From positions 112,505-176,504 of IMG/VR virus record IMGVR_UViG_3300049198_000021: a stretch of 64,000 nt of DNA; one strand, 5' to 3'. This document shows positions 5,859 to 61,388 of the stretch, one piece after another. Made by a program: the position numbers and the translations under genes. The DNA is from a virus (Duplodnaviria; Caudoviricetes). The notes under the pieces are model-generated. The model was given only the letters and a program-made list of their open reading frames with translations. It ran no database searches and had not been told where the DNA came from. Every line of letters starts with the position of its first letter. The stretch's first letter is position 1.

Positions 5859-8800
5859 TGGGACAACTCGCGACCACCATCGTCGGCGGCGTCGTCGGCT
5901 TCGCGATCGGCGGGCCCTTCGGGGCTCAGGTCGGGATGATGCTTGGCGGCATGATCGGTGCCACGCTGTTTGGTCCGACCGTTCACGGCCCGCGTCTGAA
6001 TGATCTCAAGGTCACAGCCTCGACCTACGGTGTTGCGATCCCTGAAATTTACGGGACCGTCCGGGTGGGTGGAAACATGATCTGGACCAGCGGCATTAAG
6101 GAGACCAAGAAGTCTTCACGCCCCGGTAAAGGCGGCCCGAAGCAAACGACCTATTCCTACGACGCCACTTTTGCTATGGCGTTGTGTAAGGGAGAGGTCG
6201 AAGAAATTCTTCGCATCTGGGCCGATAGCAAAATCATCTACGATAAGACTGGTGGAACGACTCGGGCACCGGCCCCCGCCGGCAGCGACGGCGTTTTCCA
6301 AACCTTGTTCTTGGAAATTCTTACCACCAAGAAGAAGAAGAAGACAATCAATGTCAGGCTTTATCGAGGCGACGAAAACCAACTCCCGGACTCTCTGATC
6401 GAAGCAGATAAGGGAGTGGGGAACGTTTCGGCTCACCGTGGGCTTTCTTATGTTGTGTTCGAGCGGTTGCAGTTGGAGAACTTCGGTAACCGCATCCCTC
6501 AAATGACCTTCGAAGTCACCAAGGCCCGGACCCGTGGTCTGGCGGCCTTACCCGTGCGTGACCGTAGTGGGGTCATCGAGAACACAGCGAACCGAGACTG
6601 GCTACCTGACTTCGCGTCGGGCCGGTTGCTCAGCTTTGATCGCAGTGGCGACGGCACCAAACTCTACAATATGGCGGACAACACGCTGATTGCAGAGGAC
6701 GAGACCATGAATTTTGATCTGACCGATAAGTCCTACAGTCTTATCGAAGGTCAGAACGCCTTACTGGTTGCCAATTTCCCAGCCGGCGTCGGTTTTTCCT
6801 ACTACAACACCGGTATTCTGACCAAGATCAACGAATACAACACGGCCAGCGGGACAACCAACATCTGGGACCCGGTGGCTAAGGAAATCACACTAGCTAC
6901 AAACGGAAAGATCGGACACGGACGGTTTGTCTCGGGTGTTTCAGGCAGCGTGCATGTCGTCCATACCGATGTGACCGGCACAACCTTCTTGATGGACAGT
7001 GAAGGGCGTCTCCTTAATGAGTTCGATGCCCCTTTCCAACCTGATGTTTTCCTAGAAGGACGACGCGACGCGTCAAACTCCCAGATCATCGGGTGGCGGT
7101 TTGCCAATGATCAACTCGAAATGTTCGAGGTCAAGACCGATTCGTCGGCGATCTATACGACGATCTTGGAAGCTGGCACTGAGACGTGGGTTCCCCAAAC
7201 TGACTTCGCAGTGAGAAGCATCAACCTTAAACCATACCCGGCTGAGAAATTCCAACCACTGGCTCTGGTTTATGACCCAACAGACGACCATTTCTTCTGT
7301 CTTGGTGTTGATCCAGATAAATACAATGACATCGACTCCTTCGGTAACGGGGGCGGAGTCATCGTATTCAAATACTCCTTGGAGACCAATTCCTACAAGT
7401 TCTTGGTGAAGCACGGCGGGACTCCCGTCCCTCGTGGTCTGACGCAAAACATGCGCGCCTCGCGTCTCGCTGGGGGCACGTTCGGGTGGATAGGTAAGCC
7501 AGCCGTCGGCGATCCAACGGTCAACCAAGTAAGCCTGCAAAATGGTAGTCTGGAAAACCTATTCGAAGCACAGGACGATTTCGGGTCTGGGCTCACAGGA
7601 GTCGGGGATCAGTATTGGGACGACGAGACGGACAGCATCTTCGCTGATCGTATCGTGGCCGGTGTAACTAACAGCTATCGCCTGCGAGTCAGCGATAGCA
7701 TAGCACAGGTAACGGTTCCGGCGATCGTTGAGGACATCTGCGTCCGGAGCGGCATCTTGGCGCTGGAAGACATCGACATCACAGAGTTGGATGCGTCACC
7801 ACTGGTGGGTTACTCCCTCGACCGAATGACAACTGCTCGGGATGCCTTGAAGCAGATGGCTACGGCGTTCCTCTTCGATGGCTATGAGAGCGATTACAAG
7901 CTCAAGTTCCGCTCGCGTGGTGGTGACACGATCGTCAACATCCCGGAAGACTGGATGGCCCGTGAAGGGGAAGATGGTGTCATCAAAGAGACCATCACGC
8001 AAGAGCTTGAGATGCCGGTCCGGATCAGCGTCAACTATTACGACATTGCCCGAGACCACCAGCAGAATAGCCAGACGGCGAAGCGCAAGGTTGCCCCCTA
8101 TCCGACCATGTGGACGGCCAAGGAAGACCTCATCGACCTGCCCATCACATGGGACGCGGACTCGGCCAAGCAGTGTGCGGACAAGCTGCTCAAGATGGCA
8201 TGGGCAAACCGTGTCGGACACCAGTTCAACTTACCGTGGCGTTATCTGAAATACGATCCGACGGATGTCATCACCATCACGATGGAAAATGAGACGACCT
8301 ACAACCTGCGCCTCACCGAAGCGAACATTGGGTCCAACTTCTCGATCGAAGCACAGGCGGTTAGCGAAGTCGCGACCGCTTATGTCTCGACCGCGACTGG
8401 TGCCCAAGCGCCGGCTCCCATCCAGACAGTTGAGGGTGATGGGACTGCCTTCCCGATCATCATGAATACGCCGTTGCTGCGTGATGTGGATTACGACACC
8501 ACCGGCTCTTCGATCTGCTATTTCTCGGCAGGGACCAACGAGATCAGCTTCAACGGAGCGGCGGTCTACATTGATGATGGTAGCGACTATCAGGCCGTGG
8601 GTGTCATCGATAACCAAACGACTACGGGATACGCTATTGATGCGCTCCCGAATACGAACAGCTACGAAGCCACTGACGAGACTACAGTCATTCGGGTGCG
8701 TTTGTCTGATCCAAGCATGGAGCTTGAATCGGTCACACAAGACGACATCCTGAACTTCGAAGCCAACTCGGCTTTGATCGGAAACGAGATCATCCAGTTC

Positions 8801-9460
8801 CGTGACGCAACCCTACTACCGACCGGTGAGTGGGCTCTGTCTGGTATTCTCCGCGCCCGGCGGGGCACGAACTATGCTGTGAAGGGACACCAACGAGGCG
8901 AGAACTTCCTGCTGGTCAACAGCCTCTCGACTGGTAAATTCTCCCGCCCGCCTGAGAGCTACGTCACTACCCGGTTGTTCAAGGCAGCCCCCCTGTCGGT
9001 CCCTCTGTCCGATGTGGTTCCGATTTCCGTGGACCTTATCCCGCGTGACCTTATGCCATACACCCCTGAGGCTGTTAAGGTGACCGACGACGCGACTGAT
9101 GTAGTCATAAGCGCCGAACGTCGTTCGCGTGTCACAGCGTCTCTCAGAGACGGTGTAAGCACCATTCACTACAAGGAAGGGGATATGCTCAGCGCCCGGA
9201 TCGAGACCAAGGTCTGGTTCGGAAAAGGATTGGCCGATGTCAACTCCGTCGGCGCGGCTGACCTGACACTGACGAGCTACCTCTTTGACGCGGCTGGGGT
9301 GGACATTCCGGTGGAAGCTACATTCCCTGTCGCTTCCATGGGAGCAGAAGATACGGTCCTGATCCAACTCGCTGAGATTGGCGAAGTGACGGGAACGCCC
9401 AAGTGGGTTCAAGCCACTCGCTACGGAACCGGACTGTGGGACCTTCTCGAATTGTATTGA
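5858..9460 (+). CDS. Tail tip / host-specificity protein (GTA g15-like), paralog 1
   Basis: GPRLNDLKV..STYG..IPEIYGTVRVGGNMIW, SAHRGLSYVVFE.LQLENFGNRIPQ, LRARRGT motifs; 1200 aa. Confidence 0.88.
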   Translation: MGQLATTIVGGVVGFAIGGPFGAQVGMMLGGMIGATLFGPTVHGPRLNDLKVTASTYGVAIPEIYGTVRVGGNMIWTSGIKETKKSSRPGKGGPKQTTYSYDATFAMALCKGEVEEILRIWADSKIIYDKTGGTTRAPAPAGSDGVFQTLFLEILTTKKKKKTINVRLYRGDENQLPDSLIEADKGVGNVSAHRGLSYVVFERLQLENFGNRIPQMTFEVTKARTRGLAALPVRDRSGVIENTANRDWLPDFASGRLLSFDRSGDGTKLYNMADNTLIAEDETMNFDLTDKSYSLIEGQNALLVANFPAGVGFSYYNTGILTKINEYNTASGTTNIWDPVAKEITLATNGKIGHGRFVSGVSGSVHVVHTDVTGTTFLMDSEGRLLNEFDAPFQPDVFLEGRRDASNSQIIGWRFANDQLEMFEVKTDSSAIYTTILEAGTETWVPQTDFAVRSINLKPYPAEKFQPLALVYDPTDDHFFCLGVDPDKYNDIDSFGNGGGVIVFKYSLETNSYKFLVKHGGTPVPRGLTQNMRASRLAGGTFGWIGKPAVGDPTVNQVSLQNGSLENLFEAQDDFGSGLTGVGDQYWDDETDSIFADRIVAGVTNSYRLRVSDSIAQVTVPAIVEDICVRSGILALEDIDITELDASPLVGYSLDRMTTARDALKQMATAFLFDGYESDYKLKFRSRGGDTIVNIPEDWMAREGEDGVIKETITQELEMPVRISVNYYDIARDHQQNSQTAKRKVAPYPTMWTAKEDLIDLPITWDADSAKQCADKLLKMAWANRVGHQFNLPWRYLKYDPTDVITITMENETTYNLRLTEANIGSNFSIEAQAVSEVATAYVSTATGAQAPAPIQTVEGDGTAFPIIMNTPLLRDVDYDTTGSSICYFSAGTNEISFNGAAVYIDDGSDYQAVGVIDNQTTTGYAIDALPNTNSYEATDETTVIRVRLSDPSMELESVTQDDILNFEANSALIGNEIIQFRDATLLPTGEWALSGILRARRGTNYAVKGHQRGENFLLVNSLSTGKFSRPPESYVTTRLFKAAPLSVPLSDVVPISVDLIPRDLMPYTPEAVKVTDDATDVVISAERRSRVTASLRDGVSTIHYKEGDMLSARIETKVWFGKGLADVNSVGAADLTLTSYLFDAAGVDIPVEATFPVASMGAEDTVLIQLAEIGEVTGTPKWVQATRYGTGLWDLLELY

Positions 9461-9507: not shown

Positions 9508-9909
9508 ATGCCCAACACACCGCTCCTCAATATCCCGCAGGTTTCAGGCTCCCAGAACAACAAAGAAATCACGATTAACGATGCCGTTCTCGCGTTGGAA
9601 AACGCGATGAGCGCGAACCTCGTGGTTTCCTTGGCGAGCAGCAGCGACGTTACGCTGACCCAAACCCAAGCTACCCGTAACTTCATCTACACCGCCACTG
9701 GCGCAACAGTGGCAAGCATTCTGCGCTTCCCGAACACAATCGGTGCGGTCAACTTCAATCGGGTCATCTGTGTCCGCAACACCAGTGGAGCCCTGCTGAC
9801 TGTGCAATTCGCAACCGGTGCCGGAGCCTCTGTCGAAATCCCAGACGGACAGGCTCGATTGATTCTGGCTATCAACGGGCTGGACATGATTGCGGTTTCC
9901 GCTCCTTAA
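9508..9909 (+). CDS. Small tail protein; stand-alone copy of the N-terminal domain of the 13539 fibre
   Basis: MPNTPLLNIPQVSGSQNNKEITINDA.ALENA aligns over about 130 aa with MPTTPILGITQVSTSQNGKETTINDA.ALENA. Confidence 0.75.
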   Translation: MPNTPLLNIPQVSGSQNNKEITINDAVLALENAMSANLVVSLASSSDVTLTQTQATRNFIYTATGATVASILRFPNTIGAVNFNRVICVRNTSGALLTVQFATGAGASVEIPDGQARLILAINGLDMIAVSAP

Positions 9910-57028: not shown

Positions 57029-57655
57029 ATGGCTATCAAGCGTGCCAAGACCTTCGATGAGAAGCAGTTCAAGCGCCTGCTTGCCCACATCGAAGCACAC
57101 AGCGTTATGCCGGTTCGCGATAAGCTGATCGTGGCTCTGTCATTCAAGGCTGGGCTGCGTGTCGGTGAGATCGCCAAGATCAAGCTGAGCGCGATGACCG
57201 ATGTCGAGGGTAATGTCGCCAAGACCATCAACATCTTTTCCGACGTTGGTAAGAAGCAGCGGATGCGTGACATCCCGATGAACCCGCTCATCAAGACCAG
57301 TCTGGAAGAGTTCCGCAAGGAATATCCGAACGCCAAGTTCGTCGCGATTTCCTCGCAGCCGTTCCGCTGGATTCTGGCACGGGGTCGTCCGATCCCGAAA
57401 GATGCTGAGTTCAATCAGATGTCCCCGGAAGCCTTGAAGACTTACTATCTCAAGATGCTCAAGTCGTTCGGCTTCGAGGGCGCATCCACTCACTCGGGTC
57501 GCCGAACTTTTGGCACCCAGCTTGCCCGAACAGCTAACGCTCACCACTGCTCGCTGCGCGACGTTCAGCAGTTGATGGGTCACGCCCGGATGGAAACTAC
57601 CGAAGCGTATATCGAACTCACCGAAGATGCTTCTTCACTGGTGATGGCCCTTTAA
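57029..57655 (+). CDS. Tyrosine recombinase (catalytic domain only)
   Basis: GLRVGE, K, HSGRR, MGH and Y catalytic residues; 208 aa; own TTGACA promoter at 56966. Confidence 0.92.
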   Translation: MAIKRAKTFDEKQFKRLLAHIEAHSVMPVRDKLIVALSFKAGLRVGEIAKIKLSAMTDVEGNVAKTINIFSDVGKKQRMRDIPMNPLIKTSLEEFRKEYPNAKFVAISSQPFRWILARGRPIPKDAEFNQMSPEALKTYYLKMLKSFGFEGASTHSGRRTFGTQLARTANAHHCSLRDVQQLMGHARMETTEAYIELTEDASSLVMAL

Positions 57656-58697: not shown

Positions 58698-59535
58698 ACG
58701 CCAGCCTGATGGCGATAGTGTGGGGCAACTCACATAAAGGGGGTAAGGTCACATAACCCCGCCCGAAAGGGTCAATTCAGGCAAGTGCAGTCAGGTCCGC
58801 GAGGATCGCTTCTGGTAACAGGAGATAGACTGGAATGGGGCAGGGGCGCGTGAAGCGCACAGGGAGGGGCCGACGGTGCCTCCTAACGCCGGAGTAGAAC
58901 CCGGAGCCTGTATCTAACCCAAACCAACTCGATGATAAAGCACAAGGTCACGGGTTCGAGGCTTAGCGGCTGAGGGCGGTGGTCAATCTTGCAGGGTTCA
59001 CGTCCTGTCTGATGGTCTTGGTAGCTCTTAGCGGAGTGACGGATATGAGGCGACTAGCATTCCTTCGGCGGAAACGTCATGGGAACTAGGTGATAGCTCG
59101 TCTCGGTGGCTTGCACAATCTAGCTCAGTGGTAGAGCATCGGACGCTTAATCCGACGGTCGAAGGTTCAATCCCTTTGGTTGTTATCAAACGCAAAGATT
59201 GTCACGACTGCATGTGAAAGACGCCTAATGCCGTAGGGTTTACCCAATGCGGCCCGACCTGATCTCGCAAGGTGATGGTTGGTTGGTGGAAGAAGTTTCG
59301 TTGGGCCCGCAAGCCCTTAATGGCTGGAGACAGTCAGCGGAATCGAAACTGCCGAATATCATGCAGTGTCGTCGCTAATGCCAGCGACCCCGTGAGAACC
59401 GGGAAAAATAGGCGGCGTTGATCTGGGACCAGACTACCGCAAGGGGTTTGGTGGATAAGCCGGGAAAGTGACTCGCAAGGTCACCATAATCTGTGCGAAC
59501 GACGGATCGTGAAAGGCGTAGTCTCAGCCTGACAT
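58698..59535 (+). ncRNA. GOLLD-like giant structured RNA (about 840 nt) with embedded tRNA
   Basis: ORF-free; many GNRA-capped hairpins (GAAA, GCAA, GTAA, GCGA); internal tRNA; 3' end AAAGGCGTAGTCTCAGCC resembles my recollection of the GOLLD 3' domain; next to phage tRNA cluster; promoter TTGACA at 58663. Boundaries approximate. Confidence 0.65.
59114..59185 (+). tRNA. tRNA-Lys(CTT)-like, embedded in the GOLLD-like RNA
   Basis: TAGCTCAGTGGTAGAGC D arm, TCGGA-CGCTTAA-TCCGA anticodon arm (G33), GGTTCAATCC T arm; no encoded CCA. Confidence 0.7.
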
Positions 59536-59622
59536 ACATTGACTGGGGTGGTATGTAGCTCTTCGGAGTGAGGACCGGGATACCCCGCAGGCAACACCTG
59601 CCAATGTTTTTTTTTTTCGATT

Positions 59623-59792
59623 TCTATATTGGCCCAGCAAAGAAGGTTAGCTACCTTCTCCTCGGTGCCCGCAGGTCACACGATCCCAGCAATACTCGAA
59701 TGCAGACGGATCGTTCAAGCGCCAAAGCCCAGTAAGTCGAGCCGTGGCTTGTCGCATTGGGAGTCGCTGCAAACCCGCTGGGTCATTATAGA
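59623..59792 (+). ncRNA. Unassigned structured RNA A
   Basis: Closing stem TCTATATTGGCCCAGC/GCTGGGTCATTATAGA plus internal helices. Confidence 0.5.
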
Positions 59793-59810
59793 CATCGATT
59801 AGTTTTGGTT

Positions 59811-59952
59811 GGGATCACCCCGAGAAGGATACGGCCCCTAGGAGCCCTTCCTTATTTCGGTCAGGGTGTTTAGGTGATGGAATTGTTTGCGAGCCGGGTT
59901 GATCACCGAGTAGCTTTCCGTTTCAGGGGTTCGATTCCCCTCCTGATCTCCA
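59811..59952 (+). ncRNA. tRNA-like RNA B (T arm and CCA, expanded core)
   Basis: GGGATCA/TGATCTC closing stem, AGGGG-TTCGATT-CCCCT T arm, ends CCA; no recognisable D or anticodon arm. Confidence 0.5.
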
Positions 59953-59955
59953 GCT

Positions 59956-60091
59956 TCACTCGTAATGAAGCTTCTCAGCGGAATGTCGGCGGTCACGCGA
60001 CCTAACCGGCGATCCGTGTGTTTACACTGAACAGGCAGAAGGAAGGGCGTAGTGACCCCGGCCGAGCTTCGAGAGGCCCCATTACGAGTGA
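59956..60091 (+). ncRNA. Unassigned structured RNA C
   Basis: Perfect 12-bp closing stem TCACTCGTAATG/CATTACGAGTGA. Confidence 0.5.
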
Positions 60092-60093
60092 TC

Positions 60094-60209
60094 CATTTGT
60101 GATCGGGCTGGCGGCACCAGATAGGTATATGAAGCCGAGGTCGTCAGGCCCGGATAAAAACCGTGTATGGGTGTTGCTAGTGCTTTGGCCGCCGGCCTGA
60201 TCACAGATG
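60094..60209 (+). ncRNA. Unassigned structured RNA D
   Basis: 22-bp contiguous closing stem with three G-U pairs. Confidence 0.55.
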
Positions 60210-60211
60210 CT

Positions 60212-60343
60212 TCACTTGCAACAAGGACGACGGCTACGTTCTGATTATAGATGGTGGAGCCTTCACGGGCTAGGAAGCCATCAGCGATTGATCAGGATGG
60301 TGCTACCGGTGCTTTAAGTCGCCGTCTTCCTTGTTGCGAGTGA
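60212..60343 (+). ncRNA. Unassigned rod-like RNA E
   Basis: 16-bp closing stem, then GACGGC/GCCGTC, TCTGATT/GATCAGG, GATGGT/GCCATC and AGCC/GGCT helices separated by internal loops. Confidence 0.55.
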
Positions 60344-60435
60344 TGTTCGAATTGTTAGCGCCGCTCTGTCCGCAGGGCTGACCCGGCAGGTAACCAAGGG
60401 TCGTTCGAATATCCTCGCATTAAGTTCCTTCGGGA

Positions 60436-60650
60436 ACGCCGATTTATCAGCCGCGAAAGCTCAAGGGACACCTTGGGGGAGTTCGCTCAGTGGCTTTCAC
60501 CATGCACTTAACCGGGGTTGTGCCCGGAGCGGTGCTAGATTGAGAGCCGGGAGTGGGACAAGTAACGGACCAACTGATCCATACCCTACCGCCGGGCGCT
60601 TCTAATTCGGTGAGAATGGTGCGAAATGTAGTGGTTCGCACAATCGGTGT
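60436..60650 (+). ncRNA. Unassigned structured RNA F
   Basis: ACGCCGATT/AATCGGTGT closing stem followed by a T run; several internal hairpins. Confidence 0.4.
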
Positions 60651-60660
60651 AATTTTTTAG

Positions 60661-60689
60661 TTGACATTCGAATCGGATGTCGTTACACT
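60661..60689 (+). promoter_or_regulatory. Sigma70-like promoter of tRNA operon 1
   Basis: TTGACA-N17-TACACT. Confidence 0.85.
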
Positions 60690-61277: not shown

Positions 61278-61388
61278 ATGCGGGGCGGTTGTAGAACGAG
61301 GAGGACGCCGGTTCGAATCCGGCCACCGGGGCAAGGCTCCGGTGTAGCTCAGGTGGTTAGAGCGCCTTGTTGGTTTCGTCCCCGGCAT
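61278..61388 (+). ncRNA. YrlA-type Y RNA-like circularly permuted tRNA mimic
   Basis: Order is T arm (GCCGG-TTCGAAT-CCGGC), loop-closed acceptor stem (CACCGGGGC-AAG-GCTCCGGTG), D arm (TAGCTCAGGTGGTTAGAGC); anticodon stem AACGAGG/CCTTGTT continues into a terminal stem. Confidence 0.75.

Follow-up and report, generated by a model that had tools for sequence, protein, structure and literature searches.

The DNA analyzed here, referred to as the window, is a 64-kilobase (kb) stretch that forms the final part of a 176.5-kb IMG/VR phage record (IMGVR_UViG_3300049198_000021), and the phage is a large one of the sphingomonad type. Toward the end of the window, a train free of open reading frames (ORFs) at positions 59537–60650 sits between a GOLLD RNA and a block of tRNA genes. 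Folding and comparative analyses support the view that this train is composed of genuine + strand RNA structures of no catalogued family, which form independent modules rather than one fold. One of the modules, termed unit C, is well supported by sequence comparison as defining a new RNA family. The train is part of an RNA island of about 9 kb, which comprises GOLLD, the train, about 27 tRNAs and a transfer-messenger RNA (tmRNA), with an RtcB gene nearby.

Relatives of the region were gathered through searches with a neighbouring protein and with motifs conserved in GOLLD and the leader. They comprise the four near-identical contigs L003–L006, the contigs L007, L136 and L135, and the loci L137 and L140 on one 151-kb contig, together with Erythrobacter phage XM05 (PV416404, L002), Sphingobium phage Lacusarx (NC_041927, L139) and a contig of Sphingobium sp. 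MK2 (L147). The features of the train and of the adjoining GOLLD RNA are listed below, with lengths in nucleotides (nt) or base pairs (bp); MFE denotes the minimum free energy fold, and z the folding-energy score of a unit.

59047–59530, + strand: conserved 3′ domain of GOLLD RNA (Rfam RF02032, 156.7 bits, model positions 1–416 of 416)
59114–59185, + strand: tRNA-Lys(CTT) embedded in GOLLD (ARAGORN)
59536–59617, + strand: spacer peculiar to this phage, with two small hairpins, a weak terminator-like hairpin (59587–59601) and a run of 11 T (59607–59617)
59617–59798, + strand: unit A, a branched RNA of 170–182 nt with a closing helix of about 15–20 bp including mismatches; z = −4.3
59811–59858, + strand: 5′ hairpin of unit B, from the MFE fold, conserved in L007
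59859–59952, + strand: tRNA-like element of unit B, with a 7-bp acceptor stem (59859–59865 with 59942–59948) and a T arm (59925–59941)
59956–60091, + strand: unit C, 136 nt, founding member of a family of 113–136 nt; z = −4.9
60094–60209, + strand: unit D, with a 22-bp closing helix and an interior of varying length; z = −6.4
60212–60343, + strand: unit E, with a closing helix of about 22 bp; the sequence at the base of this helix is that of P1 in unit C (UCACUYG/CRAGUGA); z = −7.0
60344–60411, + strand: unit G, a 68-nt domain with a 9-bp closing stem in the MFE fold
60412–60424, + strand: 13-mer ATATCCTCGCATT, single-stranded, in the interval from unit G to unit F; no differences among the window, L003, L007 and L136
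60424–60437, + strand: UUCG-capped hairpin after this 13-mer, from the MFE fold
60436–60650, + strand: unit F, branched and about 215 nt long, with a 9-bp closing helix; z = −2.6

Folding, strand and coding potential of the train

The MFE fold was computed for positions 59531–60660 of the + strand, with the base-pair span limited to 240 nt and dinucleotide shuffles as controls. An earlier note, made from the sequence without database searches, had described a tiling by stem-closed units, and the fold returned domains at almost exactly the same coordinates: A at 59617–59798, B at 59807–59955, C at 59956–60091, D at 60094–60209, E at 60212–60343 and F at 60438–60648, the last preceded by a 14-nt hairpin (60424–60437). 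One more domain, G (60344–60411), appeared inside what had been taken for a gap between E and F. The spacers of 2–3 nt separating B, C, D and E from one another were verified, as were the flanks common to C and E (CTTCACTYG…CGAGTGAT). Unit B departs from the proposed tiling: instead of a terminal stem starting at 59811, a small hairpin (59811–59858) is followed by the tRNA-like element (59859–59952).

The region has an energy of −451 kcal/mol, 68 kcal/mol better than its shuffles (−383 ± 11 kcal/mol; z = −5.9). The train contains four domains that are 80 nt or longer and have 9 bp or more in the closing helix, compared with a mean of 1.1 and a maximum of 2 in the shuffles. The individual scores of units A, C, D, E and F are those listed above; for units B (z = +0.8) and G (z = +0.6), folding energy alone is not significant. 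The closing helices measure 22 bp in D, about 22 bp in E, 12 + 7 bp in C, and 9 bp in both F and G. Owing to G–U pairs, the + strand folds much better than the − strand, at −451 versus −400.5 kcal/mol for the whole region, −59.3 versus −41.5 kcal/mol for unit D and −65.3 versus −48.3 kcal/mol for unit E, and unit F shows the same preference. The energies agree with the earlier argument that the G–U pairs of the stems favour an RNA of the + strand, and the preference matches the + orientation of GOLLD and the tRNAs.

Furthermore, comparison with the related phages revealed that helices are kept through compensatory changes in every unit, for units A, D, E, F and G with 3–4 related sequences each. 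In unit A, 13 of the 49 pairs are changed on both sides among four sequences, five of them in the closing helix, and none of 500 shuffles reached as high a value. Unit F has 12 of 65 pairs changed on both sides among three sequences, one of these in the closing helix. Compared with L136, the closing helix of unit D shows two compensatory pairs and several G–U/G–C/A–U transitions; in three relatives this unit contains an extra hairpin of 16–19 nt, and a 53-nt stretch of the unit is identical in the window, L003 and L007. Six interior pairs of unit E are compensated between the window and L007 (two sequences) with an invariant closing helix, and the short forms of E in L003 and L136, of 86–88 nt, retain the closing stem. 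The closing stem of unit G, TTCGAA/TTCGAA in the window, becomes TTTGAG/CTCAAA in L007, corresponding to two compensated pairs.

Sequence analysis revealed no start-codon ORF longer than 64 amino acids in the train region, and open frames break or shift between relatives, in agreement with the earlier statement that no credible ORF is present. A 101-codon stop-to-stop frame on the − strand, partly kept in L003, was rejected as coding because it is split in L007. Searching Rfam 15 at E values up to 10 yielded only chance-level fragments inside 59537–60650 (12.7–18.1 bits), namely SNORD31 on the − strand, PhotoRC-I, and the T arm against beta_tmRNA, so that the assignment of the units to no known family withstood this check. 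No ribozyme model, that of the hammerhead included, matched the train in the same search. The GOLLD model (RF02032) is matched end to end at 59047–59530, and the train lies downstream of it, outside the model. Two further readings were rejected. For a tmRNA-like cassette, two-piece forms included, no tmRNA model matched and no tag-like frame was found, that is, no + strand frame of the train ending in AA, AV, LA or VA before the stop. For closing helices of the Y RNA type, there is no match to the YrlA (Y RNA-like) model inside the train and no TROVE protein in the genome.

These data also bear on an explanation at the DNA level, according to which the inverted repeats would serve as a replication origin, as recombination sites or as miniature mobile elements. 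Such a role would suit an ORF-free region rich in inverted repeats, with cassette-like units, terminal inverted repeats common to C and E, and a tyrosine recombinase gene 2 kb upstream. We nevertheless regard it as highly improbable, given that the + strand folds much better through G–U pairs and that compensatory changes, G–U intermediates included, preserve the pairing. In a test for mobile DNA resembling miniature inverted-repeat transposable elements or repetitive extragenic palindromes, the terminal motifs of C and E proved not to be dispersed, occurring in the 64-kb window outside the island at chance frequency only. In addition, no target-site duplications were found, and the flanking GOLLD and tRNAs are RNA genes on the same strand.

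Unit C and its tRNA-like neighbours

Unit C consists of two closing helices, P1 and P2, a helix P3 that is variable in length or minimal, and two hairpins, P4 and P5. P1 is conserved in sequence (UCACUCGYAAU with AUURCNAGUGA), and free covariation is seen in P2 and P4. Invariant elements are the loops of P4 (ACACU) and P5 (GUAGUG) and a GAGCUU junction; in all, about 35–40 loop and junction nucleotides do not vary. A loop–loop contact between CACUR and UAGUG is possible, but it stays conjectural since neither loop varies. Across nine distinct sequences, 97% of the cells are paired and 12 of the 27 pairs are changed on both sides, a value reached by none of 500 shuffles, with slid controls giving 1–4 pairs. 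A covariance model, R1, scores the window copy at 155 bits and eight further distinct members at 71–153 bits (L003, 153; L007, 153; XM05, 140; L136, 93; L135, 89; L147, 77; L140, 72; Lacusarx, 71). L137 contains a weak C-like unit only (21 bits), between GOLLD and the tRNA leader.

A single copy of unit C is present in the genome of the phage studied here. In six phages the unit closely follows GOLLD; its copies in Lacusarx, L140 and L147 are 18–640 nt upstream of a permuted tmRNA, which in L147 follows directly, 18 nt on. A tRNA-like unit with a T arm and an acceptor helix directly adjoins C on one side or the other in the window, L003, L007, L136, XM05, Lacusarx and L140, and for L135 no such neighbour was identified. 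Judged by this nearly constant adjacency, unit C appears to behave as a partner of tRNA-like RNAs or of tmRNA.

In Lacusarx, unit C and the tRNA-like unit occupy positions 74037–74303 (L139:4897–5163), upstream of ssrA, where the annotation leaves a gap between gp193 and gp192, an HNH endonuclease gene; against Rfam, this segment gave only a tRNA-Sec match (16.6 bits, E = 4.3). Among 151 sampled Sphingomonadaceae genomes, one, the Sphingobium sp. MK2 assembly, contains the unit. The copy lies on a 126.6-kb contig (NZ_JAZDXA010000011.1, L147) with a tRNA array and a permuted tmRNA, and this contig is probably a Lacusarx-like phage genome inside the bacterial assembly. An 18-nt motif of unit C with 16 specified bases returned 120 metagenomic stretches, none of them similar to the region by blastn, the motif being too short; two viral hits to it, L008 and L010, failed model R1. 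A stricter pattern gave seven matches in a genome collection, of which only the MK2 contig was real by R1, and further scans of viral contigs returned no contigs beyond those already found.

In the window, the tRNA-like neighbour of unit C is unit B. Its acceptor stem pairs GGTCAGG with CCTGATC, and its T arm is canonical (AGGGG-TTCGATT-CCCCT), followed by a discriminator T and an encoded CCA (59950–59952). By acceptor stem, T arm and 3′ CCA, unit B is thus tRNA-like; by D arm, anticodon arm and score it is not, with no match by default ARAGORN or by the Rfam tRNA model at E values up to 10. Relaxed ARAGORN alone detects it, drawing a D stem of just 3 bp, an anticodon stem that contains mismatches and about 22 extra nt that stay unpaired, and the element fails the tRNA, tmRNA and YrlA models alike. 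The T stem covaries between relatives (GGGG/CCCC, GTGG/CCAC, GAGG/CCTC), and acceptor pair 3:70 changes from T–A to G–C in L007. Since the homologues in Lacusarx and L140 retain a class-II-like D arm, the window copy looks like a decayed tRNA-like element, trimmed from a fuller form. The candidate role of acceptor piece in a two-piece tmRNA was rejected, given that the upstream strand of unit B itself completes the acceptor stem, in which L007 shows a compensatory change; the phage also has a complete permuted tmRNA at another site. Among the tRNA-like units of seven phages the T arm alone could be aligned reliably, and no family model was therefore built for unit B.

Two further explanations involve tRNA-like RNAs. 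In the first, the units would be cis-acting structures that process, insulate or stabilise the transcript ends of GOLLD, tRNA-like RNA or tmRNA, some of them being decaying tRNA-like remains. Long terminal helices are classical RNase (ribonuclease) III sites and exonuclease blocks, as known from rRNA operon stalks and from the early RNA of T7; unit B, lacking D and anticodon arms, is clearly the decayed form of a tRNA-like gene, with better-preserved homologues in Lacusarx and L140, and unit C nearly always abuts a tRNA-like RNA or tmRNA. However, a processing stem needs no conserved, covarying branched interior and requires neither the 35–40 invariant nucleotides of C nor the 53-nt identical stretch of D, and seven different elaborate structures in series exceed the needs of insulation. 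We therefore rate this explanation as rather improbable. In the second, unit C would represent a new functional RNA class acting on or with tRNA-shaped RNAs, for example as a self-processing ribozyme or as an RNA- or protein-binding module that defines the termini of tRNA-like RNAs and phage tmRNA or accompanies them; under this reading, the train as a whole would comprise accessory RNAs, or clients, that are delivered along with the GOLLD nanocage RNA. The invariant nucleotides, the conserved P1, the constant adjacency to tRNA-like RNA or tmRNA in either order and the junctions of 2–8 nt leave room for this idea, which we consider speculative and quite doubtful.

Modularity of the train

Differences between the relatives fall at the borders of the units, which thus appear as the units of evolution. 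XM05 has unit C alone in common with the train, and its blastn match (59954–60092) starts and stops at most 2 nt from the closing stem of C. L136 lacks unit B, contains a tRNA-like unit after C, and carries an extra unit before A (L136:920–1084). L007 possesses three extra stem-closed units (8891–9027, 9031–9193 and 9536–9656). The spacer at 59536–59617 is missing in L003, where unit A directly follows GOLLD. The earlier description of the units as self-enclosed is in line with these whole-unit differences and with the position of the XM05 similarity edges. As read from the alignments, the units are exchangeable cassettes: whole units come and go, change size or change place, with these changes located at the closing stems.

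The close packing of the units raises the alternative that the train is one long multi-domain RNA of about 1.0–1.1 kb, possibly a 3′ extension of GOLLD, which would function as a whole, the domains being arms of a single ornate RNA. The spacers among C, D, E and G are 0–3 nt, the order A-(B)-C-D-E-G-F is retained in four close relatives, and the consensus scan found no internal promoter or terminator; GOLLD itself is likewise large and multi-domain, with a variable part and an embedded tRNA. Nevertheless, C occurs alone in XM05, L135 and L137, and in Lacusarx, L140 and L147 its neighbour is tmRNA; relatives differ by insertions or deletions of entire units, and no long-range pairing joining one unit to another is apparent. 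Moreover, the match to the Rfam GOLLD model is full-length and ends at 59530. A single long RNA thus seems unlikely to us. The unit-wise evolution speaks in favour of separate RNAs rather than a single fold, without being proof of processing.

Two side observations concern the same relatives. The extra unit at L007:8891–9027 begins with TTCACT and ends with AGTGAA, as units C and E do. In L003–L006, around 8088–8100, the equivalent of window positions 58812–59110 is missing and no GOLLD match reaches the gathering score; the GOLLD of these contigs may thus be truncated, though the train is retained.

Transcription, proposed mechanism and significance

Upstream of the train, the conserved 5′ part of GOLLD extends back to about 58300, with blastn conservation over 58307–59531 in L007 and XM05. 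Downstream, ARAGORN identified 17 further tRNA genes from 60902 to the end of the window. The same island continues at the start of the record (G000:C1:1–8927, locus L152), with nine more tRNA genes (261–2167), a complete permuted alpha-proteobacterial tmRNA (G000:C1:2849–3280) and an RtcB RNA ligase gene (G000:C1:7686–8927); this locus would directly succeed the end of the window if the genome is circularly permuted. Between tRNA-Pro and tRNA-Ile, at 61282–61385, there is a sub-threshold match to YrlA (37.2 bits versus a gathering score of 69), and no Ro/TROVE protein was found in the 176.5-kb phage genome. A tyrosine recombinase of 208 amino acids (57029–57655; Pfam Phage_integrase, E = 1.6e-21) is encoded 1.3 kb upstream of the GOLLD region and is syntenic with an XM05 gene annotated as 'integrase'. 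Neither a CCA-adding enzyme nor an RNase III was found encoded by the phage.

A consensus scan of the stretch from GOLLD to 60661 detected no promoter. In L003, only about 10 nt separate GOLLD from unit A, too few to accommodate a promoter; read-through from GOLLD is therefore the simplest source of the train transcript. A strong promoter (TTGACA-17-TACACT) is present at 60661–60689, ahead of the leader and the tRNA unit. Directly 3′ of unit F lies AATTTTTT (60651–60658), a U-tract that is likely the end of the transcription unit. In this phage, the hairpin and T11 run at 59587–59617 may attenuate read-through from GOLLD. The polycistronic array of small RNAs put forward in the earlier note accordingly holds in part: the start of unit A about 10 nt past GOLLD in the L003 relatives and the U-tract terminator after F agree with it. 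The release of discrete RNAs by processing stays a hypothesis, and a role as decoys or sponges is neither supported nor contradicted by the data, the sequence containing no pointer to a decoy target.

The structures and their relatives enable us to propose a putative model, in which a co-transcribed array of clamped domains is released by host nucleases as stable small RNAs that act during infection on translation or RNA repair. We find this model moderately probable. The train would be a non-coding RNA operon of the + strand, transcribed most likely by read-through from GOLLD and ending at the U-tract after F. The transcript would fold co-transcriptionally into about seven autonomous domains, each with its 5′ and 3′ ends clamped by a long helix. 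Host endonucleases would then cut in or near the closing helices and in the few single-stranded linkers, with RNase III as candidate for the 20–22 bp stems of A, D and E, RNase E for AU-rich linkers, and RNase P together with 3′ trimming for the tRNA-like unit B. The outcome would be exonuclease-resistant small RNAs of 70–215 nt, with unit C as the conserved core cassette of the train. Given the constant company of tRNA arrays, tmRNA, GOLLD and RtcB ligase, the most likely target of these RNAs during infection would be the machinery of translation or RNA repair.

Several points weigh against this co-transcribed array. The hairpin and T11 between GOLLD and unit A could stop read-through, and the consensus scan found no promoter for the train itself. 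Spacers of 0–3 nt between helices are unusually tight for endonucleolytic processing, and one long coaxially stacked RNA would also fit them. No RNase III was found in the phage, so that processing must rely on the host. Conservation beyond close relatives is seen for unit C only, the evidence for A, D, E, F and G coming from 3–4 sequences, and the putative link to translation is one of guilt by association.

The proposed array is reminiscent of several known systems. In the tRNA cluster of phage T4, the stable 'species 1' and 'species 2' RNAs (rnaC and rnaD) are non-tRNA structured small RNAs, which are co-transcribed with tRNAs and released by host processing and whose function is still unknown. 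Like the train, they are structured non-tRNA RNAs beside phage tRNA genes; T4 has two such RNAs, whereas the train has about seven, set 0–3 nt apart next to GOLLD and with a cassette-like turnover. In rRNA operons and the T7 early transcript, flanking sequences form a long helix that brings the RNA ends together as an RNase III stalk, whose cleavage could free the enclosed RNA. End-joining long helices are common to these stalks and the train, in the latter as predicted folds only, and the closing stems of C, F and G (9–12 bp) are shorter than typical RNase III substrates. Unit B resembles tRNA and the tRNA-like modules of tmRNA and YrlA in its 7-bp acceptor stem, its canonical T arm and its CCA end; it has neither a D arm nor an anticodon arm, and units A and C–G are not tRNA-like. 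GOLLD and ROOL are large ornate RNAs of phages and prophages that occur beside tRNA islands (PMC12286853). The train has the same habitat, with GOLLD as its immediate upstream neighbour, and likewise shows elaborate covarying structures without known function, but its units are small (70–215 nt), separable and individually dispensable among relatives. The general kind of element is hence not new; the novelty lies in the families, in how densely they are packed beside GOLLD and in the association of unit C with tRNA-like RNAs.

In summary, the enigmatic RNAs known from phage tRNA islands include GOLLD, ROOL and species 1 and 2 of T4, and their functions have been open questions for up to fifty years. 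The present locus shows that such an island can also hold a dense array of further uncatalogued structured RNAs evolving as exchangeable cassettes. The unit C family is present, unannotated, in two cultivable phage–host pairs, Lacusarx with Sphingobium sp. IP1 and XM05 with Erythrobacter sp. JL475, and the role of RNAs in tRNA/GOLLD islands is therefore directly testable. For research on GOLLD, the train offers candidate co-transcribed partner RNAs.

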